NCBI GenBank assembly: GCA_964629815.1 | Contig: CAZVTA010000002.1 | Coordinates: 2,096-66,095, forward strand | DNA: 64,000 nt | DNA from: an uncultured Candidatus Saccharibacteria bacterium | Lineage (GTDB): Bacteria > Patescibacteriota > Saccharimonadia > Saccharimonadales > AWTP1-31 | Direction of reading: 5' to 3' | Shown here: positions 1 through 19,784 of the stretch, piece after piece | Position numbering within the stretch: the stretch's first letter is position 1 | Layout of the letters: the number at the start of each line of letters is the position of its first letter | The notes under the pieces: generated by a model | Database searches by the model: none | What the model was told of the DNA's origin: nothing | The model's input: only the letters and a program-made list of their open reading frames with translations | Made by a program: the position numbers and the translations under genes

Positions 1-299
1 AATTACCAGATGGAAATGAAAAAGGTTTGGGCTATTCCAATTTCGCTCGCCACTACTTTCGGAATCGTTGTTTACTTTCTCTTCCTCGAGGTACTAAGAT
101 GTTTCAGTTCCCCCGGTTACCGCTATCTCAACCTATATATTCAGTTAAGTGCCACAAGACATGACTCTTGTGAGGTTTCCCCATTCGGAAATCTTCGGTT
201 CAAAGCTTAGTTAGCAGCTCCCCGAAGCTTATCGCAGCTTCTTACGTCCTTCATCGGTATCTTACGTCTAGGCATCCTTTATGTGCGCTTGAGTAACTT
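1..299 (-). rRNA. rrl: 23S rRNA, 5' portion only (gene continues past the left edge of the window)
   Basis: Reverse complement of about 180-299 reads AGTTACTCAAGCGCACATAAAGGATGCCTAGACGTAAGATACCGATGAAGGACGTAAGAAGCTGCGATAAGC...TTTCCGAATGGGGA. This is the conserved 5' domain of bacterial 23S rRNA. The 5' end was placed by recall of the E. coli 5' sequence. Confidence 0.9.
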
Positions 300-546
300 T
301 TTACGTTTGTACATCGTTAAACGATGTACGTGCATTGACAATTAGCCAGTTATTGGTGAATACCATTAACTGTGTAGCTGTAATAGCTACTGCCGTTTGT
401 CATATTTACTTATATTTCCAAATTGTTAAGTTACAAACTTTAGGAGCATCAAAACACATGGTTTTTATGCATATCCTTCAGTTTATGCTGATGGCTGAAT
501 TGCCTTTCGACATACAGACACGTGCCTAAACTCAAGGTACCGTCAA

Positions 547-575
547 AGTTTATCACTAATAACAGAGGCGGTCAA
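547..575 (-). promoter_or_regulatory. Candidate promoter for the 23S rRNA gene (TTGACC-17-TAAACT)
   Basis: On the minus strand, TTGACC (575..570), a 17 nt spacer, then TAAACT (552..547). The hexamers and spacing are the same as the infC promoter in this window. It lies about 240 nt upstream of the 23S 5' end. Confidence 0.35.
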
Positions 576-682
576 GCATATTTAGTTGTCAAACTTGCTA
601 CACTTTTGCCCCTTAGGCGACTGCTCTTTTGCTGGTTTCTGGGCTTCATAGCGACAGATTATTGCCTTTTTAGTACCTACTG

Positions 683-711
683 TTGAAAAAATGCGCAATG
701 TTTAGTACAAT
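683..711 (+). promoter_or_regulatory. Promoter of the tRNA-Ala/tRNA-Ile unit (TTGAAA-17-TACAAT)
   Basis: TTGAAA at 683-688, a 17 nt spacer, TACAAT at 706-711. tRNA-Ala starts 16 nt downstream. Confidence 0.5.
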
Positions 712-726
712 ACATCGGTAATTTCT

Positions 727-803
727 GGGGCGATAGCTCAGTTGGCTAGAGCACCTGCTTTGCAAGCAGGGGGTCCGGGGTTCGAGTCCCCGTCGCTCCA
801 CCA
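727..803 (+). tRNA. tRNA-Ala (anticodon TGC), CCA encoded
   Basis: GGGGCGA acceptor arm pairs with TCGCTCC. Anticodon arm is CCTGC-TTTGCAA-GCAGG, T-arm has GGTTCGAGTCC, and the gene ends ACCA. Confidence 0.97.
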
Positions 804-822
804 CAAATTACGAAACTCATCC

Positions 823-899
823 GTAGGGAAAAGAGAAGCCCGACAAATTTTCACACAAATTTGCCGGCGCGATGAGAAAAACCGTAGGTTTGTCTCATT
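823..899 (+). repeat. Structured two-hairpin repeat element, copy A (between tRNA-Ala and tRNA-Ile)
   Basis: Aligns with 57603-57683 through a shared core AAAGAG.AGCCCGA...CACAC...TTGCC(C)GGCGCGATGAGAAAA(A)CC...GGTT(T)GTCTCATT. Hairpin 1 is CAAATTT-TCACAC-AAATTTG. Hairpin 2 is ATGAGAAAAACC-GTA-GGTTTGTCTCAT. Confidence 0.6.
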
Positions 900-901
900 T
901 T

Positions 902-978
902 GGGCGATTAGCTCAGCTGGTTAGAGCGCGTCACTGATAATGACGAGGTCGGAGGTTCGAGTCCCTCATCGCCCACCA
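902..978 (+). tRNA. tRNA-Ile (anticodon GAT), CCA encoded
   Basis: GGGCGAT acceptor arm, anticodon arm CGTCA-CTGATAA-TGACG, T-arm GGTTCGAGTCC, ends ACCA. Confidence 0.97.
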
Positions 979-981
979 CAA

Positions 982-1009
982 ACACCTTTCAAAGGTGTTT
1001 TTTATTTTT
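982..1009. terminator. Hairpin plus T-run after tRNA-Ile; also lies at the 3' end of the convergent HAD gene
   Basis: ACACC-TTTCAAA-GGTGT followed by TTTTTTATTTTT. Confidence 0.55.
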
Positions 1010-1649
1010 CCAACACTATATCAGCGATAGATGCAACGGCTACTGCACGAATAGTATCCCATCCCTCTAGATTCTCGAAATCTTCGGGCGAAAGTAGGCC
1101 AGTCCCCACACCAATAAAGTCAAACCCGGCATCACGGGCCGCATAAAAATCTGTGGGTGCATCACCGATATATATAACCTCTTTTGGATCGTATCCATGG
1201 CCGAGCAAAGGGTCAAACACTCGTTTATCCGGCTTGTGATGCTGGCAATCATCTATAGTAAACACATGATCAAACGTACCCTGTTCTATTGCATTGTGGA
1301 CAAAATCTCCCGCCAGACTGCGTGTATTAGTAGACGTAACAAGCGCAATTATCTTTCCTGCAGCTCGTAAATTCTTTAGTAATCGTTTTGATTCAGGAAA
1401 AATCTCTTTAGGAAAATTGGGTTTTTCTCGCAGTAAATGTGGCTCTACCCTCTCAAATGGATGGCCATATAATTCTTCAACCATACTATGAAAAGGTTTG
1501 CCCCAAACACGCCGCATGTCATCATCGGTGATTGTTACTCCAAACTCAGTCAGGGCGACATGTTTGTGCTGCTTCCAGACATTCTTAATCGTAGCCACCA
1601 ACGTATCATCAAAATCAAATGCTACTACTTTATAATTCTTGTTTATCAT
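1002..1649 (-). CDS. HAD-superfamily hydrolase (phosphatase-like)
   Basis: 215 aa ORF. HAD motif I VVAFDFDDTLV near the N-terminus and motif IV YIGDAPTDFYAARDAG near the C-terminus. Confidence 0.8.
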   Translation of the reverse strand: MINKNYKVVAFDFDDTLVATIKNVWKQHKHVALTEFGVTITDDDMRRVWGKPFHSMVEELYGHPFERVEPHLLREKPNFPKEIFPESKRLLKNLRAAGKIIALVTSTNTRSLAGDFVHNAIEQGTFDHVFTIDDCQHHKPDKRVFDPLLGHGYDPKEVIYIGDAPTDFYAARDAGFDFIGVGTGLLSPEDFENLEGWDTIRAVAVASIADIVLEK

Positions 1650-1664
1650 ATTCTAGTCGTGAAA

Positions 1665-2111
1665 CTAATCGCTAGTTCCCTTGGTTTGATCCACTAACTG
1701 CTTTGCCAGTTCCAGTCGTTCACGTGCGTCATCCCCGACCGGTTCACTCCCCGAATAAGCATTACCTTCAAGAAATACCGCATATTGCCGCAAAGCACTC
1801 AAGGCAATATGCGACATTTTAGAAGACCACGTAAGATCGAGATAGGCCTCCCTATCCTGACCTACCAACTTAGAGTTTAGTATCGCCTGCTGGCCTAATA
1901 CCTCCAGATTATGAAAGCCCTTTGCTTTAGGCGTCTTCTCTGCGAGCCATTCAAGAAGACCCCCCAGCCTTCCGAATCCATGCCCTTCAAAGACACCGTC
2001 AATAAATGGCTTCCTCCGAGAATAAACAGCAGCGTCAGTAACTAAATACACTTCTTCGGTTGAAGTAAATCCAAGACCCTCTAATCCACCCGATCCGCCT
2101 ATAATTTTCAT
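1665..2111 (-). CDS. Hypothetical protein (148 aa)
   Basis: Intact ORF on the same strand, 15 nt upstream of the HAD gene. I recognise no motif. Confidence 0.5.
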   Translation of the reverse strand: MKIIGGSGGLEGLGFTSTEEVYLVTDAAVYSRRKPFIDGVFEGHGFGRLGGLLEWLAEKTPKAKGFHNLEVLGQQAILNSKLVGQDREAYLDLTWSSKMSHIALSALRQYAVFLEGNAYSGSEPVGDDARERLELAKQLVDQTKGTSD

Positions 2112-2149
2112 ATACTAGCTCCTGCTTATGCAAAAAGTATAACATCAAA

Positions 2150-2187
2150 CAAAAAAGAGCCCTCTCGCAAATGGGCTCTTTTTTTTG
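2150..2187 (-). terminator. Rho-independent terminator downstream of the 16S rRNA gene
   Basis: AGAGCCC (2156-2162) pairs with GGGCTCT (2173-2179) across a 10 nt loop. An A-run and a T-run flank it; on the minus strand the stem is followed by TTTTTTG. Confidence 0.6.
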
Positions 2188-2417
2188 GCTTCTCGGCTCA
2201 ATACAGGCTTGAGCAAACCTTGGTTAAAAACTGAAGTAGTGCAAATCAAACGTCGTTCGGGTACAGAACTGATATCTTGTCCTGCAAGGCAGGATATACC
2301 GAAGGTATAGCTGTGCCGAAGCAGGAGATGTACGTTGTCAGTACTGATGTTACAACGTACCAAGACCGACCTAGCTCTAAGAGTGATTGCTCGACTCTTA
2401 TGCTAGTAATCTCCCTA

Positions 2418-3915
<1,498 letters not shown>

Positions 3916-4042
3916 AAGAACTGATACTGTTTTACTTATAAAACTCAGTTTATGAACTGACGTTGATTTGCACTATTCAATTTTTAACGTTCATTTCCTT
4001 TAGAGACACTCTAAAACAGGCAATCCCAAAAGGTCTCCAGCC

Positions 4043-4120: not shown

Positions 4121-6670
4121 TTATTGCTCTTCAGACTCCGCATCGTCTTCGACTTTGTCGACAAGTGCAAGCGATACTACCGAATCATCGTCATTGAGGC
4201 GCATAATTCGAACACCCTGCGTGGCTCTACCGAGCTCTGGAATATCCTTAAGACCCAGACGAATCGTTTGACCTTGCTTAGAGATAATAATCACTTCCTG
4301 CCCATCGTTTTCGAGGGTCTTTACCCCTATCAAATTACCGGTCTTGGTGTTCACGACTGCCGAACGAATACCTACGCCACCACGAGCATGCGCCGTAAAT
4401 TGAGCCACCTTGGTGCGTTTACCATAGCCGTGGGCACTAATAACAAAGATACTTGCACCCTCTTGGACAGTATCCATGCCTATTACCTGGTCGCCCGTAC
4501 GTAGTCGAATGCCACGAACACCCCGAGACGCACGACCCATTGGACGAACATCCTTCTCATGGAAGCGAATTGCCTGCCCCATAGCTGTCGAGATAACAAT
4601 TTCGTTATCACTGTTGGTCATACGAATCCACTTGAGCTCATCACCCTCATCGAGATTGATCGCGATAAGGCCTGTTTGGCGTACATTTTGATACTGTTCG
4701 AATGGCGTCTTCTTAACGACACCGCGAATAGTACACATAAACAGGTTGCCCGTCTTTTCGGTCTTACTAATGTTAATAACAGAGCTAACCTTCTCTTCTG
4801 GCTGTAGCTGCAACAGATTAACAATAGCAACACCCTTAGCACTAAGATTGGTCGCTGGCACCTCGTACGTCTTGAGCCTAAAGACGCGACCCTTGTTGGT
4901 AAAGAACAAGAGGTAGTCGTGCGTACTTGCATTTACAACATGTTCTATAACGTCTTCTTCGCGTGTTACCATGCCACGCTTGCCCTTGCCGCCCCGGTTT
5001 TGTCTTCGGTAATCGGCAATTGGTGAGCGTTTAATGTAGTTTGCAGATGTAAGTGTTACTACAACTTGCTCGTCCGGAATGAGATCTTCGTCGCTCATTC
5101 TGCCGAGTTCTTGCGGAATGATCTTGGTGCGTCGTTCATCACCGAATTGCTTCTTCAGTTCAATCAGCTCGTCCTTAATGATGGCAAGAATCTTTTGCTC
5201 GTCTGCAAGAATAGCTTCCAGCTCTGCAATAATCTTCAATAGCTCTGCAAGCTCGTCTTCGATCTTCTGGCGCTCGAGACCGGCAAGCGTACGAAGCTGC
5301 ATGGCTAGAATAGCCTTGGCCTGTATCTCGCTGAGCTTGAACTTCTTAATAAGGTTTGCCTGCGCCTCTTCGGTGGTTTGGCTAGCGCGTATAGTCGCAA
5401 TAACTTCGTCAATGTGATCGAGTGCAATCTTGAGACCCTCTAAGATATGTGCACGGTCTTTTGCCTTGCGTAGCTCATATTCGGTCCTTCGACGCACCAC
5501 AACCTGACGGTGCTTAATGTATTCACCAAGAATATCAACGAGACCCAAAATACGTGGCTGTATGCCGTCGATGAGCGCCAGCATGTTGTAGTGGAAGGTA
5601 GTCTGAAGCGGTGTTAGCTTGTATAGCTGGTTTAATATCTTCTTTGGATATGCGTCTTTCTTGAGGTCGATTACAATACGAACCGTACCACGAGAACTCT
5701 CGTCGCGGATATCACTAATACCGGTTATCTTCTTTTCTTTTACGAGGTCAGCAATCTTTTCGATAAGCGACGCTTTGTTGAGCGCGTACGGTATTTCGGT
5801 AATAACAATCTGGCTTTTACCTTTCTTCGTCTCTTCGAAGTTGGCGACACCGCGGATAATGACACCACCTCTACCCGTCGCAAAGGCACCCTTAATTGAT
5901 TCACGACCATAGACAATGCCGCCTGTTGGAAAGTCTGGGCCTTTAACGTGCTCGAGTACATCATCGAGAGTAGAGTCGGGCTTGTCTATCAGGCATATTG
6001 TGGCGTCGACAATCTCATTAAGGTTATGCGGCGGTATATTAGTGGCCATACCAACTGCAATACCCATCTGTCCGTTAAGCAATAAGTTTGGTAACTTAGC
6101 CGGCAGCACCTCTGGCTCTTGCTCACTACCATCGTAGTTATCTCTGAAAGGCACCGTATCTTTATCGATATCTTCTAGCAAAGCTTGGCCGGCTTTGGCC
6201 ATACGAGCCTCGGTATATCGTTGCGCAGCTGGCGGATCGCCGTCCATAGAACCAAAGTTACCCTGCCCATCAACCAACAAATACCTCGTCGACCAGTTTT
6301 GCGCCAAACGAACCATAGCATCATAGATAGCAACATCTCCGTGCGGGTGATACTTACCCATCACATCACCGGTAATACGAGCACTTTTTACAAACTTACT
6401 TCCTGGCTTCCAGCCGTTCTTGTCCATCGAATACAGAATGCGACGGTGCACTGGCTTCATGCCATCTCGAACGTCCGGCAACGCGCGAGCGACAATGACA
6501 CTCATAGAGTAACGAAGATAGCTATCTTCCATAACATCTTCGACGGTGCGCAGCTCAACCATGTGTGAATGGCCGCTGTCCATGATCTCTACATGATTTG
6601 CAGCATTGTCTGTGCTCGTTACACTGGTGTCTGTGCTGTTTGTTGTATCTTCGGTTTTGTTGTCGTCCAT
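4121..6670 (-). CDS. gyrA: DNA gyrase subunit A
   Basis: 849 aa. Contains [32 protein letters not shown] and [10 protein letters not shown] (active-site Tyr region), plus a C-terminal beta-pinwheel repeat region. Confidence 0.97.
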
Positions 6671-7409
6671 TATTGTGCTCCCATCGTTCTTGAAAGTTCA
6701 AGCATCGCTATCGCGTCATCTTCTGTCATGGCAAATTGCCCATAACCTGCCTCGTGTTCTGGGCGAGTAATCGCCCGCATAGCCCTATCGTGCATCAGTT
6801 CGGCTGTTGTTCCAGGAAAAGTTCTTGCGATATTATGCGCCTTTGCAATATTCTCCCACATATCTGAACGTATCTTGTCGATAGTAGCAGAACGCAATGC
6901 AACATCAACGGCCAATGTATGTAAACGAGCATCCTCTACATCTTTCGGGTTTTTGTCTGCATGTAGGCGGCTAGCTGTTTGTAACTTTTTTTGTTGGGAT
7001 TCAAGCCAATACGATTCATAACACGCACGTATCCCTAAACTAAGCGCCCGCACGCTAAACTCCGAAACATCTTCTTGCCCGAGGCTCTGACAAAGCTCCT
7101 CGACAAATGTTTCTATAGGCATAACGCGGCGCGAATCATCACCGGCAACTCGCACAACCGTTGGCAAAGAAAAATCCAGGTTCCAGTCGCTCACCACAGA
7201 TGAACATGGCCTAAACGATTCGTCATCTAAGTCTCGTTCGTGTTCAAGCCAGTAGCGCAACCCATTATCTCTATCAAAACCCGACCTAAGGGGGCCAAGA
7301 ACCCTTAATAATGAACCGTAGCCACCGGAAGTTCCATAACAAAGATCGTCTGCAGCCTTAGCATAACTATCGATATACGGCTGCCTCTTAAGATATGATA
7401 CTTCCGCCA

Positions 7410-7410
<1 letters not shown>
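6670..7410 (-). CDS. Hypothetical protein (246 aa) encoded between gyrB and gyrA
   Basis: Intact ORF. Both junctions are TAATG overlaps: the gyrB stop overlaps its start, and its stop overlaps the gyrA start. I recognise no motif. Confidence 0.6.
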
Positions 7411-9410
<2,000 letters not shown>

Positions 9411-9419
9411 TTACTAACT

Positions 9420-9448
9420 ATTATACGGTAGAAGTTAATCGAAGACAA
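9420..9448 (-). promoter_or_regulatory. Promoter of the gyrB operon (TTGTCT-17-TATAAT)
   Basis: On the minus strand, TTGTCT (9448..9443), a 17 nt spacer, TATAAT (9425..9420). Confidence 0.45.
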
Positions 9449-9516: not shown

Positions 9517-11448
9517 ATGTTTAACAAACTCGTTAGCAACCTCCCCTTTAACCCGAGCCTTATCCATCAGGTCGTGTTTTACGGTAAACGACTTAAGCAA
9601 GAATCCGCAATACGGCGCTTGGGCTTTATTTTCATCGTACTTACGATGTTGCTGCAAGTTTTTGCAGTCATCTCTCCTGCAGGAGCTTCTAATCAGTGTA
9701 GCAACAATGATGTCGTTCGTTGCGGTTTTCGAAGCCGAGACGAGGCAGTAAAACTCTGTAAGAGTAACACGTATGCCTTTGGTACGATCATTAACTACTA
9801 CGGCGTATCTTGTGACACAGTAGCATCGAGCGAAACAAAGACCATTAGCGCCACCGCTGACGGCAATCAGCTGTTTTCTATGGGGCGCAACCCTTATAGT
9901 AAGCCGGGAGAATACCCCGTATCAATTAACAACGCAGGCAAGTTTTACTTACGCCCATTATCAAGCTGGGGCTCGAGCCTTTCACATAAAGTTCTAAGCA
10001 TGAAAACCCCTGACGGTGCACCGTTTATGCTCATGTACGATTGCGGAAATATTATTATTCGCAAAGGATACACTCCGCCCGCAAAACCAGAGCCAAGTTC
10101 TGATTTAAAACTTGCCAAAGTTAACAAACCTACTGGTGAGGTAAAACCTGGTGATCAAATAGAATACACCCTAGCATTCACTAACAAGGGCGGTACTGCT
10201 GCGTTCTTTTCTGTTAACGACGTACTTCCAAACGAGCTCGAATACGTGAGCTCTGCTTCTGGTAGCTGGTTCTTTGAAAACAAGACACCCAACCTCAAGT
10301 GGTACAACAACACGCCGCCGTTCTACACCTTTGGCAATACCGATGCGCTCGGAACACCTGGGTTCATTACCCTCAAAACACGCGTTAAAAGTAACATTGT
10401 CTCTGGAACAGTGATCTGCAACAAAGCATACCTGCAAGATGTTGATAAAAATACCAAGCAAACACGCAACCACAGCGAAGTTACTGTCTGTAACACGGTA
10501 CGCATTCCTTGCCCTGACGGCCAAATCCCGAATGGGTCGGGCGGCTGCGAACCTGTGGTAATTGCTGCTGCAAACTGTACGTATCTAAAAGTCATAAAGG
10601 AACCGAGCCGAACAAAGCGAACATTCGAAGCCAAAGCAACAGCTTTGAATGGAGCAACCATTAGCAGCTACACCTATGACTTTGGTGACGGTACTGCCAT
10701 AACCACACAAAACAACACTAAAGATCTCGACACCATCGAACACACCTACGCAAAAGCTGGAACATACTCTGTGAAAACCACCGTAAAAACATCACTTGGC
10801 GATAAAACGTCAAACGACTGTCAGACCAAAGTAGTTATATCCGACGAACCCGCAGTTCCTATAATCGCCTACCAAAAAAAGGCCAAGAATATCACAAAGA
10901 ACGTCGCAGACGCTAATGGCACAACTGCAAGCGCTGGCGATGTCATAGAATATAGCTTAACTACTACAAACTTCGGTAAGGGCGACGCAAAAGACTTTGT
11001 TCTTGCATCAGAACAGATAGCCGATATCCTCGAGTATGCGAACCTAGACTTTAATTCGCTCAATGGTGCCAGCTTTGATCAAGAAGGCAAAGTACTGTCA
11101 TGGGACAAGAAGCTAACCATCAAGCCTAGCGAAAGCGTTACAAAAACCTTTAGGGTTACCATCAAAGATCCCCTGCCTCAAACGCCTACCCCCTCCGGCA
11201 ACAGAGGCTCTTTTGACCTCACAATGACAAACGTTTACGGTAATACTGTTGAAATAAAGCTTCCAAACTCCGTAGCCAAAACCGTCGAAAAGACGACCAC
11301 ACTACCAAACACCGGTCCCGGCACAAGCCTTGCTATCGGGTTCGTCATCACTACCCTTGTCGGATACTTCTTCGCACGATCACGATTACTGAGCAAAGAA
11401 ATAGACATCATCAAAGCAGACTATAACGCATCGGCCGGAGGAGCATAA
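9517..11448 (+). CDS. Sortase-anchored surface protein with DUF11-type repeats and a PKD-like domain
   Basis: 643 aa with an N-terminal TM/signal segment. Two 'conserved repeat domain'-like segments (PGDQIEYTLAFTNKGG, AGDVIEYSLTTTNFGKG). PKD-like YTYDFGDGT...HTYAKAGTYSV. C-terminal LPNTG, then a hydrophobic segment, then ARSR. Confidence 0.75.
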   Translation: MFNKLVSNLPFNPSLIHQVVFYGKRLKQESAIRRLGFIFIVLTMLLQVFAVISPAGASNQCSNNDVVRCGFRSRDEAVKLCKSNTYAFGTIINYYGVSCDTVASSETKTISATADGNQLFSMGRNPYSKPGEYPVSINNAGKFYLRPLSSWGSSLSHKVLSMKTPDGAPFMLMYDCGNIIIRKGYTPPAKPEPSSDLKLAKVNKPTGEVKPGDQIEYTLAFTNKGGTAAFFSVNDVLPNELEYVSSASGSWFFENKTPNLKWYNNTPPFYTFGNTDALGTPGFITLKTRVKSNIVSGTVICNKAYLQDVDKNTKQTRNHSEVTVCNTVRIPCPDGQIPNGSGGCEPVVIAAANCTYLKVIKEPSRTKRTFEAKATALNGATISSYTYDFGDGTAITTQNNTKDLDTIEHTYAKAGTYSVKTTVKTSLGDKTSNDCQTKVVISDEPAVPIIAYQKKAKNITKNVADANGTTASAGDVIEYSLTTTNFGKGDAKDFVLASEQIADILEYANLDFNSLNGASFDQEGKVLSWDKKLTIKPSESVTKTFRVTIKDPLPQTPTPSGNRGSFDLTMTNVYGNTVEIKLPNSVAKTVEKTTTLPNTGPGTSLAIGFVITTLVGYFFARSRLLSKEIDIIKADYNASAGGA

Positions 11449-11450
11449 TA

Positions 11451-12026
11451 ATGAGTGAGCGTGAACCAATGCAGAACCCCGAGGGTTTTAAAAATGCCGA
11501 AAAAATAGACACCAATACCGAACGCACACAGAATAAACACGAGCACGTGCAGCATAAACAGGAGTCTGAAAAGTCCTTCAGTAGCGAAGATTTAAATACG
11601 ATCCGTCACAAGGTTGAACACGAAGCTATAAGCGGAAAAGATGCAAAGCTCGATCCATCAAGTGAACGATCAAAATCATCATCGCAACCCATGGTCACCA
11701 AAGACCTAAAAAGTATGATGCTCAATAGAACACTAACACGTGTCAGAAAAGAGCTCCCTACCCCCTTACGCGCATTCAGTAAGGTAGTGCATAGCAAACC
11801 GGTAGAGACAATAAGTGCAGTCGGCGAAAAAACCATAGCCCGACCAAAAGGTCTGCTTGGTGGATCCATGACCGCCTTTGTAGGTGTTGCCTATGTTTTG
11901 TATACCGCCAAAGAATATGGCTTTAACTACAATCTGCTACTATTCCTCATGTTATTCAGTGTTGGCTACATAGCAACCACTTTACTCGAAACAATCTTTG
12001 CCCTAATACGAAAATTCCGCACCTAA
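11451..12026 (+). CDS. Hypothetical membrane protein (191 aa)
   Basis: Starts 2 nt after the upstream stop. Charged, low-complexity N-terminal half and two C-terminal hydrophobic segments. Confidence 0.5.
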   Translation: MSEREPMQNPEGFKNAEKIDTNTERTQNKHEHVQHKQESEKSFSSEDLNTIRHKVEHEAISGKDAKLDPSSERSKSSSQPMVTKDLKSMMLNRTLTRVRKELPTPLRAFSKVVHSKPVETISAVGEKTIARPKGLLGGSMTAFVGVAYVLYTAKEYGFNYNLLLFLMLFSVGYIATTLLETIFALIRKFRT

Positions 12027-12088
12027 AGTACTGTCCCGACTACAAACAAGTATTCTGTCCATTGCCTGTACTAAGCCGTCTCCGCTTA

Positions 12089-14974
12089 CTACTTTAGTCT
12101 AACCGTGTGCTCAGTATGAGACTGATCGCCAAGATGTATCTGACCATCTGTTGTTGCTTGTTGCTGCACAGGAACGGGCGTAGTCGCCGAAGGTAGAGTT
12201 GCTTGCTGAGATAGGCTGGCCGGCGTAGTAGACTGTGGGGCACTAGCAGGCTGTACAGACGGAAACGATCCTGCAGGTGGATATTGTGGCGTCTGCAACG
12301 AGTTCATCGCTCCTGCAGGCTGCTGAGGAGCCTGAGCATAGTTTTGCTGCTGCTGGAATGGTCGTTGCCGCATCGCAGCTGGCTGTGGAGCTGTTGGCAT
12401 ACTCTTTTTCGCTAACCAGTCATCCAAGAAAGAAGATCCGGTCGAAGGCTGTTTTGGTCGTTGGGCACCAAAACCCGCAGGAGCACCGGGTCGCGGTCCG
12501 GCAACAGCGTCTTGCTTGGCGTCTTCTACCGTACGCAGTCTATCGAAAATTTCTTTATCAACCTGGGCTTTTGGTCGACCATATTTAGCTTGAGATAACT
12601 GCTTGAGCGCATCACCTAGCTCTTTATTTGGGGTACCCAGTGGGGGCAATCCAGCCATACTGAATGGCTGCGTCGGTATACCGCCAATCAATGTTCGCAC
12701 AATTGCATTCCAGTTTGGAACACGCAGCAAGTCATCACCATCAAAAAGCGGCTGAAAATAGCGAGAAAGCGACTCTACATCGTTCTGGCCAATACGAAAC
12801 GAAACAATCGTACCCATATTACCGAATACCGCATCTCTAATTTCATCGGTCAGCTGGGTTGTAAACTGGTTTGCGACAATAAGATTAAGGTGGTATTTTC
12901 GCGCTTCGGACATAATGGTTGCGAATGAGTCAGTTGAGAAGTTCTGGAACTCATCCACATACAAACAGAAGTCTTGACGCTCGCTCTCGGGCACGTTTGC
13001 ACGGCTCATTGCAGCAGCCTGAAACTTCATTACGAATATCATACCTAACAGTTTTGAGTTCAGCTCACCCGTTTTTCCTTTGCTGAGATTTACCAGCAGG
13101 ATCTTCTTGTTGTCCATTATTTCGCGCAAGTTAAACGAGCTTTTTGTTTGACCAATGATATTTCGCATCATCTCATTAGCCATGAACGCGCCGAACTTAC
13201 TCACAAACCATCCCAGCACCTCACTCTTATGATAATCACTCGTTTGGGCCATTTCTTTATTCCAGAAATCTAAAACAGTCTGATCAGTTACGTGCTGGAG
13301 CTTCTGCTTGGCATATTTGTTGTCGGTAAAGACTTTTGGGATATCAATAAATGTAGCCCCTTCAGGATCGGCCATAATAGTCAGAGCCGCCATTCGAAAC
13401 CAGTGTTCATAACGGGGGCCAATTATCCCTTGTCGTTGTGGGTCGTACAACTTATAAAGCATATTGATCGCTTCTTGAATCAGGAAGTCTTTTTGCTCAG
13501 GACTGTGGAATTCAAACATATTGAGCCCCATAGGAAAGTCCATATCGGCAGGATTAAAGTAAATAACGTCTTCGGTGCGCTCTTTTGGTACCATAGATAA
13601 TAATTTCTCTGCAGTATCACCGTGAGGATCAACGAATGCAAAGCCATCCCCGTTCAACATATCCTGCAATGCAAGATTCTCTAGAAAAGTAGACTTACCA
13701 GTACCGGTCTGTCCAACGACATACATATGTCGCTGCCTATCGTTGAGTGTCAGCCTGATAGGCTTCTTAGCACCCCTAAACAAGTTGTACCCCAATAACA
13801 GCCCATCTTCAGGTATATTGCGCGGAGCATCGACCTGCTTAGAAGCCTGTCTCTCGAGTTGGGCGGTTGGTATATTCTTTTGGTCGGGAAAATGAAAGAG
13901 CGTAGCAAGCTCAACCGAGTTTAGAATGTTTTGATTACTCTCTTGTGGGAAAAATCGCAATATAAACGCCGTAATAAAGCTATCCATATCTTTTGCAGCA
14001 GTATATTTAAAGCCGTTTTTACCCGGAGCATCAAACAACGCAAATGCTGCAACAATGTTATTCAAAATAGAATGAGCTTTTTGGGATATATTTGATGACG
14101 CAACAACACGGATGAGCACTTCATAACCTGGGTAGCGCGTCTTATCATCTACTGCGTCAAGAATTTGCTGGTCAAGACCTGATAAATCATTTTTCTTCTC
14201 TTCTTTTTTCTCGCCCGACTTATCTTCTGGCGGCTTAGCTACGGCGGTAGCAAGCTGGCCTGCCCACCATAAAGCCTTTGTTGCGCCCTTCTTATCTTCT
14301 TTGCCCTTTCGCTTCTTTGAGGCAATATCCTGGGCGGTCTTCCGCCACTCTGGATTAGCGGGACGCATAAGTATCTGTATACCTGCACCATCTTCCTTAT
14401 CGAGCGTGGATAATGCGTTCAGAATTGACTGTAATGCGTCTCGCTTAATCTCCTGATAGGTCGCAATCGGGTATGCAAACTCCTTTTTCAGAGTTAACTC
14501 ACCGCCTATCGTTCCCGCAAGACGACCAACTGGACTAAAAATATTGTGTTCAGCCACTTCCTCAAGCTGGGCGGTTGGATATGAGCTAATCACCGCTTGC
14601 TTCACGACATCCACGAGAGCCACAGGAACCGCTGCATAAAAATGAACAAAACCCTTGCTGCCTATGATTTCGAAGGCAAAGTGCCTTTGGCCGTAGAATT
14701 TACTCTTAAAACCCTTTTGGACAGTACTCGCGATAATACCGTACAACACCTGTGCCTTTGATATATTCTCTTCCGTAACATCACGTATATCACGTCCGTT
14801 ACCTTCTATATCTTCACTGGGTGGCGGCATATGAATAAGTAATGGCACCATTTTGAGACCACGCTCAAAGTTCTTCTGCTCTCGGAGCAATTTCCTAGAA
14901 TAGAAGTAAGCTATCGCTCCCGCACCAGCAAGAATAAATAAGAACACGACGACGACATACAAGATTGGCGACAT
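12089..14974 (-). CDS. Membrane-anchored P-loop ATPase resembling type IV coupling proteins (TraD/TraG/VirD4, FtsK/HerA superfamily)
   Basis: 961 aa with an N-terminal TM. Walker A is VVGQTGTGKST and Walker B is LYVDEFQNF. ARKYHLNLIVANQFTTQL resembles the TraG/TraD C-terminal region. The C-terminal tail is long and Q/P/A-rich. Confidence 0.6.
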   Translation of the reverse strand: MSPILYVVVVFLFILAGAGAIAYFYSRKLLREQKNFERGLKMVPLLIHMPPPSEDIEGNGRDIRDVTEENISKAQVLYGIIASTVQKGFKSKFYGQRHFAFEIIGSKGFVHFYAAVPVALVDVVKQAVISSYPTAQLEEVAEHNIFSPVGRLAGTIGGELTLKKEFAYPIATYQEIKRDALQSILNALSTLDKEDGAGIQILMRPANPEWRKTAQDIASKKRKGKEDKKGATKALWWAGQLATAVAKPPEDKSGEKKEEKKNDLSGLDQQILDAVDDKTRYPGYEVLIRVVASSNISQKAHSILNNIVAAFALFDAPGKNGFKYTAAKDMDSFITAFILRFFPQESNQNILNSVELATLFHFPDQKNIPTAQLERQASKQVDAPRNIPEDGLLLGYNLFRGAKKPIRLTLNDRQRHMYVVGQTGTGKSTFLENLALQDMLNGDGFAFVDPHGDTAEKLLSMVPKERTEDVIYFNPADMDFPMGLNMFEFHSPEQKDFLIQEAINMLYKLYDPQRQGIIGPRYEHWFRMAALTIMADPEGATFIDIPKVFTDNKYAKQKLQHVTDQTVLDFWNKEMAQTSDYHKSEVLGWFVSKFGAFMANEMMRNIIGQTKSSFNLREIMDNKKILLVNLSKGKTGELNSKLLGMIFVMKFQAAAMSRANVPESERQDFCLYVDEFQNFSTDSFATIMSEARKYHLNLIVANQFTTQLTDEIRDAVFGNMGTIVSFRIGQNDVESLSRYFQPLFDGDDLLRVPNWNAIVRTLIGGIPTQPFSMAGLPPLGTPNKELGDALKQLSQAKYGRPKAQVDKEIFDRLRTVEDAKQDAVAGPRPGAPAGFGAQRPKQPSTGSSFLDDWLAKKSMPTAPQPAAMRQRPFQQQQNYAQAPQQPAGAMNSLQTPQYPPAGSFPSVQPASAPQSTTPASLSQQATLPSATTPVPVQQQATTDGQIHLGDQSHTEHTVRLK

Positions 14975-19440: not shown

Positions 19441-19778
19441 GTTGGGCTATCGGCTAATCGCCTGCTTTTACAGGAGGAAAGTCCGGGCAGCAACGGGAGA
19501 GGACAGTTGCTAACGGCAACCGGGGGTAACCCTAGGGAAAGTGCCACAGAAACCAAACCGCCTAACTATTGTTAGGTAAGGGTGAAACGAGCGAGGTAAG
19601 AGCTCGCATTTTATGTCGGTGACGGCAAAAAACGGTAAACCCTGTCCGCTGCAAGGAGATGCATCAAGCACAAGACTCCCACTTTGATGCATCACAAGAA
19701 CCGCTCGATCTACAGAGTAATCTATAGACTAGATAGATGATTAGCTAAAACAGAACCCGGCTTACGGATAACCCAGCA
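19441..19778 (+). ncRNA. rnpB: RNase P RNA, bacterial type A
   Basis: Contains GGAGGAAAGTCCGGGC near the 5' end and ACAGAACCCGGCTTA near the 3' end. P1 forms between GTTGGGCTATC and GATAACCCAGC. An extended -10 TGGTATAAT (19426-19434) sits 7 nt upstream. Confidence 0.9.
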
Positions 19779-19784
19779 CCTAAG

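Follow-up and report, generated by a model that had tools for sequence, protein, structure and literature searches.

DNA gyrase is the target of a range of small, soluble, often acidic and gyrase-dedicated proteins, among them YacG, GyrI/SbmC, MfpA/Qnr/McbG/AlbG, CcdB and ParE. These modulators and toxins are optional and patchily distributed, and are often linked to antibiotics, microcins or plasmid addiction. To our knowledge, no known gyrase modulator is encoded between gyrB and gyrA. The closest genetic precedent for a gene at such a site comes from phage T4, in which the free-standing, promoter-less mobE lies between nrdA and nrdB, its start overlapping the upstream stop in UAAUGA, and mobA is found at topoisomerase genes (PMC2988022). 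Here we describe an open reading frame (ORF) of 246 residues, termed X, that lies between gyrB and gyrA in an uncultured Candidatus Saccharibacteria bacterium. The DNA analyzed, referred to below as the window, is a 64,000-nucleotide stretch of contig CAZVTA010000002.1 (positions 2,096 to 66,095; assembly GCA_964629815.1). X proves to be a real gene of a new protein family, and its tight coupling to the gyrase genes proves to be a constraint of the site it occupies.

We found no earlier description of this arrangement in the literature, and our search for reports of any gene lying between gyrB and gyrA, whether in Saccharibacteria or in other organisms, returned only an unrelated case, a 4.7 kb gyrB-gyrA gap in Caldalkalibacillus (PMC7561548).

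X fills the junction between gyrB and gyrA

The locus is read on the minus strand of the window and contains the following features, listed in the order of transcription.

9420..9448, minus strand: sigma-70-like promoter match TTGTCT-17-TATAAT (10/12) from a consensus scan, ~50 nt upstream of the gyrB start
7410..9371, minus strand: gyrB, 653 residues with a GTG start, first gene of the operon (ORF list and Pfam)
7423..7427, minus strand: Shine-Dalgarno (SD)-like AAGGA in the last gyrB codons (the K-D of ...KDLDV), 12 nt before the X ATG
6670..7410, minus strand: X, 741 nt and 246 residues, an accessory ORF and the founding member of a very small, fast-evolving family
6678..6682, minus strand: SD element GGGAG in the last X codons (..MGAQ and stop), 7 nt before the gyrA ATG
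4121..6670, minus strand: gyrA, 849 residues (ORF list; Pfam DNA_topoisoIV and DNA_gyraseA_C)
2419..3917, minus strand: 16S rRNA gene, directly downstream of gyrA (Rfam SSU_rRNA_bacteria, 1493.8 bits)

The same five nucleotides, TAATG, form both junctions. At the first, the gyrB stop (TAA, 7412..7410) overlaps the start of X (ATG, 7410..7408), and at the second the X stop (TAA, 6672..6670), which follows the C-terminal residues SRTMGAQ, overlaps the start of gyrA (ATG, 6670..6668). The flanking genes encode complete gyrase subunits, with HATPase_c, DNA_gyraseB, Toprim and DNA_gyraseB_C domains in GyrB and DNA_topoisoIV and DNA_gyraseA_C domains in GyrA (both read on the identical contig L004). 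GyrB of the window is 65-84% identical to Saccharibacteria GyrB, and the closest gyrB loci among GTDB genomes all come from Saccharibacteria/Saccharimonadales metagenome-assembled genomes (MAGs).

The promoter-like match upstream of gyrB is the sole good one of the region in the consensus scan, which showed no promoter for gyrA within X. It is likely to be the promoter of a gyrB-X-gyrA transcript, a call that rests on its position only, the total number of sites in the scan being at chance level. Given the TAATG overlaps, the embedded SD elements and the location of the only good promoter upstream of gyrB, co-transcription and translational coupling of the three genes are a reasonable inference. 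An earlier sequence-only reading of this DNA had described a 246-residue ORF that exactly fills the gap with TAATG at both ends, which the sequence confirms, and had treated the three genes as one unit, a view upheld by the promoter position and by the near-universal tightness of these junctions. It was right in its choice of Patescibacteria as the group concerned, and also right to set X apart from inteins: X starts and stops with an ATG and a TAA of its own, is read in another frame than the gyrase genes, leaves the gyrase domains complete and has no Hint/Intein Pfam match.

A terminator-like hairpin with a trailing TTTT is located at 7280-7299 (minus strand), where it covers the conserved GPLR codons in the 5' portion of X. 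T4 mobE has an internal terminator of which this is reminiscent, but such sites are no more frequent in the region than chance would give.

X is a real gene of a new protein family

We estimate the probability of a 246-codon open frame at ~7e-6 for random sequence with the composition seen here. When 1.84 billion cluster representatives were searched exhaustively with phmmer, a family of nine lineages was recovered (P0001-P0008 and P0010), P0009 having been dropped as a spurious repeat protein. The frame is intact as an ORF in the eight further lineages, and no frameshifted or stop-containing copy was seen in any of the nine. X is under purifying selection, with dN 0.047, dS 0.138 and an omega (dN/dS) of 0.34 relative to the 90%-identical allele of locus L001. 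The improbability of so long a frame by chance, its integrity in eight further lineages and the selection acting on it establish X as a real protein-coding gene. Its GC content, GC content at third codon positions (GC3) and codon usage lie within about one standard deviation of those of other window genes, and it has no paralog elsewhere in the window.

The family alignment contains the conserved motifs GSLxxxGPLR, WNLDFTLP, ALSxGIRxxYE, DVALRxA and AHNIA and 12 invariant columns, including G32, L34, G39, Y53, D63, L78, D79, F102, E132, D169 and R173. The conserved polar residues are Y53, N77, D79, E132, D169, R173 and H192. Cysteines number from zero to four and are not conserved. The C-terminal third of the protein is variable or missing in P0005, P0010 and P0008, the last of which has 187 residues.

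X is hydrophilic and acidic (grand average of hydropathy -0.45; isoelectric point (pI) 5.05), and across the family pI values of 4.65-6.5 and net charges of -1 to -22 mark all members as acidic to neutral. The AlphaFold2 model of X, built from a 10-sequence alignment, is confident (predicted local distance difference test (pLDDT) 81.6; predicted template modeling score (pTM) 0.76). The predicted fold comprises an N-terminal helix and small beta-sheet, a disordered loop (residues 62-75), a long helical hairpin (117-148 and 161-191) and two C-terminal helices. When the N-terminal 114 residues were modeled alone the confidence was low (pLDDT 60.8). The modeling suggests that the fold is one integrated unit in which the N-terminal region is not an autonomous domain.

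Searches of Pfam, NCBIfam and PHROGs returned no family for X at E<=10, and PADLOC returned none at the same threshold for X, P0002, P0006 and P0007. These empty scans fit the statement of the sequence-only reading that X has no signal peptide, transmembrane segment or recognizable motif. The Foldseek comparison which that reading had proposed, run here with the full-length model against PDB and BFVD, gave no neighbor (best E 0.33, template modeling score <0.3, with partial helical/coiled-coil overlaps). A family-profile sequence search of PDB had no match (best E 0.82), and the same profile found no match with the WNLDF-motif pattern in GTDB genomes, JGI metagenomes or IMG/VR, the viral contigs of which hold no X homolog. 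Derivation of X from the coiled coil of gyrase itself was rejected after hhalign comparisons with the GyrA and GyrB alignments showed no similarity. On these predictions and searches, X founds a new protein family whose predicted fold is novel.

X is scattered among relatives that lack it

Eight of the nine family lineages are encoded directly after gyrB, and for seven of them the order gyrB-X-gyrA is confirmed. The carrier loci are as follows.

window, L004 and L005, with L001 and L002: gyrB-X-gyrA
L003: gyrB-X-gyrA
L009: gyrB-X-gyrA
L006-L008, including an 820 kb contig: gyrB-X-gyrA
L010: gyrB-X-gyrA
L093 and L094: gyrB-X-gyrA
L095-L097: gyrB-X, then the contig end

In the six carriers inspected both junctions measure -1 to +2 nt, with an SD-like GGAG within the last X codons. 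Among all carriers with both junctions sequenced, each junction overlaps or spans <=2 nt except in L093, where the called gene coordinates place X and gyrA ~26 nt apart. The remaining family member, P0006, has 311 residues with N- and C-terminal extensions, and its gene is divergent from that of an HhH-GPD glycosylase. An ORF of 424 residues with no match in Pfam, NCBIfam or PDB begins 39 nt after P0006 and may be a functional partner of P0006 outside the gyrase context.

X is absent from all 79 informative loci of the closest GTDB species (L011-L090), and from five of six Saccharibacteria-like metagenome loci. The order of the locus is kept in X-less genomes, and runs DUF8128/DUF87 ATPase, 191-residue ORF, PKD protein, gyrB, gyrA, 16S rRNA. 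In essentially all X-less loci gyrA comes directly after gyrB and is coupled to it, with mostly 0-15 nt separating its first ATG from the end of gyrB; an apparent gap in L072 reflects a frameshifted but adjacent gyrA. Spacers of 60-157 nt, longer than usual, occur in L016, L034, L038, L042 and L046. These could be scars of lost cassettes, and hidden Markov model searches of these five spacers gave no signal of X relics.

In a tree of GyrB and GyrA the window is sister to the X-less L011, and the carrier L007 branches separately among X-less genomes. When sequence fragments flanking X are compared, the nearest sampled representative of each carrier is likewise X-less.

window: nearest X-less loci L015, L012 and L011
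L094: nearest X-less locus L019 (91-94%)
L093 and L010: nearest X-less loci L025, L017 and L023
L009: nearest X-less loci L019 and L054
L003: nearest X-less locus L028
L095: nearest locus L056, which is X-less

Since the sister of the window and the nearest representative of every carrier are X-less, X is, as judged from these comparisons, scattered over at least seven positions.

Tight coupling is a property of the site

The arrangement ...AAAGGA...TAA(n)ATG is common to all carrier junctions and to X-less loci such as L072 and L100, and in relatives without X the AAGGA precedes gyrA. A GGAG, GGAGG or GGGAG sequence is present 6-12 nt upstream of the gyrA start in six of the six carriers inspected. 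Other ORFs also occupy the slot. In L056 (7957-8499, plus strand) it holds an ORF of 180 residues, which meets the gyrB stop in TAAGATG and the gyrA start in TAATG, while the slot of its sister L057 is empty. In L100 (~4243-4653, plus strand) it holds an ORF of 136 residues with the junction TAAtATG. Comparison of these two ORFs with X, with each other and with Pfam and NCBIfam gave nothing significant; the sole trace of a relation is that the L056 ORF and P0004 share a collinear LPLRSAA / DVPLRSA stretch. The genes that occasionally intervene between gyrB and gyrA in other phyla are uncoupled and housekeeping-like, resembling inorganic pyrophosphatase and thiamine pyrophosphokinase when their printed translations are compared by eye.

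Because the unrelated ORFs of L056 and L100 are as tightly coupled as X, the coupling is a constraint of the site and no sign of a stoichiometric partnership. Without a promoter of its own gyrA re-initiates at the gyrB stop, and any ORF in the slot must for that reason take up ribosomes and hand them on. The sequence-only reading had drawn the opposite conclusion, that tight coupling points to a stoichiometric partner of gyrase. That proposal does not withstand the finding of close relatives in which the ORF is missing from an otherwise identical locus (79/79), a finding which that reading had itself named as a refutation, nor the equally coupled unrelated ORFs and the location of P0006 away from gyrase.

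X alleles are hypervariable

Pairwise identity between X proteins is 22-47%, except for the pair formed by the window and P0001, and is independent of host relatedness. The contrast with the flanking genes is most apparent between L010 and L093. The gyrB fragments of these loci are 97.8% identical at the amino acid level (dN 0.017, dS 0.91) and the gyrA fragments have a dN of 0.126, whereas X has a dN of 0.74 and an amino acid identity of 37%. Nucleotide identity drops from ~88% to ~45-50% exactly at the gyrB stop and rises again in gyrA. At the protein level X has thus evolved ~40x faster than the adjacent GyrB segment (dN 0.74 against 0.017). An omega of ~0.34 and a dS of 0.9 lead to an expected dN of ~0.3, meaning that these alleles are ~2x more diverged than clock-like vertical descent predicts. 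With synonymous sites near saturation, this excess is suggestive, though no proof, of allele replacement or strong diversifying pressure on X.

The window and L001 differ in another way. A block of 14 GyrB residues (~7620-7660, minus strand; L001:1-45) is wholly different between them, the L001 version being AMETIKNIGARGVT. The block is positioned just before the C-terminal 69 residues of GyrB, which are identical but for one substitution, and the X proteins that follow are 90% identical. The dS of X between the two loci, 0.14, is below that of the short flank fragments (0.28-0.40). This pattern may represent a recombination mosaic, although the fragments compared are short.

Possible function and alternative explanations

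With moderate confidence, we read X as an optional, promoter-less, hypervariable cassette that is probably exchanged by homologous recombination via its gyrase flanks and possibly acts on gyrase in conflict. The junction between the gyrB stop and the gyrA start is natively a translational-coupling site of 0-15 nt in Saccharimonadales. X, having no promoter of its own, would be transcribed from the gyrB promoter and, after termination at the end of gyrB, translated by reinitiation with the AAGGA that normally serves gyrA, and would hand ribosomes to gyrA through the GGGAG in its own last codons. An ORF in this slot would have to keep translation of GyrA in step with that of GyrB, and the overlaps would follow from this. 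Related Saccharibacteria would gain, lose and replace the cassette by taking up DNA through natural transformation and recombining it homologously, the conserved gyrase genes on either side serving as homology arms. Such a route is plausible because Saccharibacteria are naturally competent (PMC10633639), and recombination in the flanks would explain why the distribution is scattered, why alleles diverge in a star-like pattern and why identity breaks off sharply where the gene begins and ends.

The protein itself would be an optional modulator or protector whose target is gyrase or the DNA transactions that depend on it, deployed in a conflict, for example with phage or with toxins or antibiotics that hosts or competitors direct at gyrase. 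We infer from the near-exclusive association with gyrB, the acidic and soluble nature of the protein, its conserved polar residues and its rapid diversification that modulation or protection of gyrase or gyrase-dependent processes is the most likely role. X may play a gyrase-related accessory role of a looser kind than a stoichiometric partnership. A bolder version of the proposal takes the gyrB-gyrA junction of Saccharimonadales to be a dedicated gyrase accessory slot, exchangeable by recombination, and the X family (perhaps with the L056 and L100 ORFs) to be a new class of gyrase-binding proteins of novel fold. These would be synthesized in step with the enzyme and diversify in an arms race, for example as immunity to gyrase toxins or antibiotics from actinobacterial hosts, competitors or phages, so that a variable immunity cassette would be built into the operon of its own target; we regard this version as speculative and unlikely.

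Several points weigh against the reading of X as a gyrase-directed cassette. P0006 (NCBI MAG GCA_039028495.1; L091:10001-12249, JBCCHY010000014.1) is encoded away from gyrase, has a TATAAT-like sequence upstream and apparently its own promoter, and is nested within the family, not basal, with P0002 as its best match (39% in the identity matrix). No carrier-specific GyrB or GyrA residues, of the kind expected from co-adaptation or homing-site immunity, were found after correction for multiple testing. Transfer mediated by the flanks would by itself explain why X stays in the slot, with no functional link to gyrase, and any physical or functional interaction of X with gyrase is putative. No donor-recipient pair or breakpoint was demonstrated for the putative recombination route, and synonymous sites are near saturation between most carriers. 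Finally, the X-less survey covered 80 GTDB species-representative loci, chosen by GyrB similarity from at least 598 related loci, and the distribution tree is a neighbor-joining tree of concatenated GyrB and GyrA with no bootstrap.

The rival that survives best, although we judge it improbable, is that X is a conflict gene with no relation to gyrase, acting in anti-phage defense, counter-defense or toxin immunity, for which the junction is no more than a safe, constitutively expressed and recombination-accessible landing pad, in effect a variable island of one gene between core genes. Hypervariability and patchiness are typical of conflict genes, and the slot is filled by at least three types of ORF among which no relation is detectable. 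P0006 is found at a non-gyrase locus beside the 424-residue ORF, and gyrase does not co-vary with X. Set against this, X has no PADLOC or PHROG match and no homolog in IMG/VR viral contigs, and stands as one small gene without a partner, while defense systems mostly comprise several genes or recognizable enzymatic domains. The tie of eight of nine lineages to gyrB is also closer than a generic landing pad would need, although transfer through the flanks could account for it.

We are somewhat more doubtful that X is a selfish cassette of the homing type, which would spread into X-less junctions, perhaps by cutting or nicking the empty allele with a nuclease of unrecognized type and being copied in during repair, with no benefit to the cell. 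Its anatomy is like that of T4 mobE, and mobA at topoisomerase subunit genes offers a further parallel (PMC2988022). X shows the placement expected of a homing gene: it is sporadic, sits in a fixed slot between conserved genes, is promoter-less and overlaps the upstream stop. The empty loci in the nearest relatives of each carrier, the sharp identity break at the borders of X and the differing ORFs in one slot would all be expected of such an element, and P0008, without its C-terminal third, would fit a degeneration cycle. The protein itself argues against this reading. No HNH, GIY-YIG, LAGLIDADG, PD-(D/E)xK or other nuclease was detected at E<=10 in Pfam, NCBIfam or PHROGs, no nuclease is among the Foldseek matches in PDB and BFVD, and the acidic to neutral family members (pI 4.65-6.5) are unlike DNA-binding homing enzymes. 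Purifying selection on X, the lack of any decayed copy in the nine lineages, and P0006, outside the slot and apparently with its own promoter, also speak against it. The sequence-only reading had denied X a homing-endonuclease character on the ground that it is free-standing. That argument is faulty, as T4 mobE shows, and a homing endonuclease is instead disfavored by the missing nuclease motif and the acidity of X.

A role for X as a stoichiometric partner of gyrase or as its dedicated regulator, held at a fixed ratio to GyrB and GyrA and needed for normal function, is very improbable. The stop/start overlaps at both ends of X, the retention of the order gyrB-X-gyrA in seven lineages down to ~31% identity (A1 alignment matrix) and purifying selection would suit such a protein. 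However, X is absent from the 79 closest species representatives, in which the locus is otherwise identical and GyrB/GyrA are 65-84% identical, and even from L011, the sister of the window. It also evolves ~40x faster at the protein level than the neighboring GyrB segment, is accompanied by no carrier-specific gyrase substitutions, shares its coupling with unrelated slot ORFs and has in P0006 a relative unlinked to gyrase.

A last idea is that X has no protein function and is maintained as an open frame solely by the lethal or costly loss of gyrA coupling that a premature stop would bring, in other words by a kind of addiction. It can draw on the missing promoter of gyrA, whose SD element lies within X, on the extreme divergence of alleles and on the variable or missing C-terminal third of P0008, P0005 and P0010. 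It is scarcely credible given the invariant residues and motifs across alleles that are 22-47% identical, an omega of 0.34 and not ~1, a co-varying alignment that supports a confident, compact predicted fold, the conservation of P0006 outside the operon, where the constraint does not apply, and the precise loss that evidently occurs, relatives being empty.

Surrounding genes

Upstream of gyrB, the region 9517-14974 of the window has the same arrangement in loci with and without X. It encodes a surface protein of 643 residues (PKD/DUF11/DUF7927) with an LPNTG-like motif and a C-terminal hydrophobic segment, an ORF of 191 residues with no assigned function, and an ATPase of 961 residues with DUF8128 (read on the identical contig L004), DUF87 and AAA_22 matches. 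This last protein also has sub-threshold TraG/TrwB-like matches and may serve as an ATPase of type IV secretion or coupling.

Adjacent gyrA and 16S rRNA genes, arranged as in the window, are also found in L007, L012, L014, L017, L022, L024, L025, L030 and others. The rRNA region of the window (1-3917) is unusual, in that the 16S gene (2419..3917) and the start of the 23S gene (1..303) are both on the minus strand, ~2.1 kb apart. The interval contains a HAD-family hydrolase ORF (1002..1649, minus strand) and, on the plus strand, genes for tRNA-Ala (727..803) and tRNA-Ile (902..978). A bacterial class A RNase P RNA (19442-19780, plus strand; 245 bits) and several tRNA genes scattered across the window are ordinary.

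Comparison with known systems

Irrespective of any action on gyrase, the locus shows that an essential, coupled two-gene junction in a streamlined genome of ~0.8-1 Mb can host hypervariable ORFs, and gives the mob/seg cassettes of phage T4 a cellular counterpart. It also cautions that a stop/start overlap with essential genes does not imply stoichiometric partnership. If X does act on gyrase, it would bring a new fold and a new genetic logic to the modulation of a major antibiotic target, namely a modulator encoded in the operon of its own target and swapped between strains of epibiotic bacteria of the Candidate Phyla Radiation (CPR). That the gyrase operon should contain a hypervariable slot is unexpected; the finding is reproduced in several lineages and is open to experiment, Saccharibacteria being genetically tractable through natural transformation (PMC10633639).

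Assignment of X to known classes of protein was considered and rejected in each case. A pentapeptide-repeat protector (Qnr, MfpA, McbG, AlbG), which folds as a right-handed beta-helix, does not agree with the lack of a Pentapeptide Pfam match and the predicted small beta-sheet and long helices. Nor does a GyrI/SbmC type, with its SHS2 domain, or a YacG type, with its 4-Cys zinc finger, agree with the lack of a Pfam or fold match and the zero to four non-conserved cysteines. A CcdB/ParE toxin would again lack a Pfam or PADLOC match, and the only neighbors of X are gyrB and gyrA, so there is no antitoxin gene. No PADLOC-DB model of a known anti-phage defense protein matched, and the nuclease domain of a known homing endonuclease of the HNH, GIY-YIG, LAGLIDADG, His-Cys, PD-(D/E)xK or EDxHD type is absent in the Pfam, NCBIfam, PHROG and Foldseek scans.

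The likeness to phage T4 lies in the genetics. Like mobE, and like mobA at the topoisomerase II subunit genes 39/60, X is a small ORF exactly between the subunit genes of an essential enzyme, and like mobE it is promoter-less with a start that overlaps the upstream stop (UAAUGA in mobE, TAATG in X). The T4 mob cassettes too are present in some relatives only, with differing ORFs in one slot (PMC2988022). X differs from them in having no HNH, GIY-YIG or other nuclease signature and in being acidic. It further differs in residing in a cellular CPR genome with no viral homologs and in being coupled downstream as well, and its mobility is putative.

Variable islands are comparable in their conserved flanks, in contents that have no relation to one another, evolve fast and come and go between close relatives, and in the plausibility of flank recombination. 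The X slot differs from these in being a single ORF of 136-251 residues within an essential operon, coupled on both sides, whose boundaries are marked by no integrase, tRNA or repeat and whose product matches no known defense protein. The gyrase modulators, for their part, resemble X in its tie to gyrase, which is one of position in eight of nine lineages, and differ from it in that X has no Pfam match and a predicted alpha/beta and helical-hairpin fold with no PDB neighbor. By analogy with these systems, X is genetically like a phage-type, promoter-less cassette between subunit genes and, if its proposed function is right, could work like an optional gyrase modulator.

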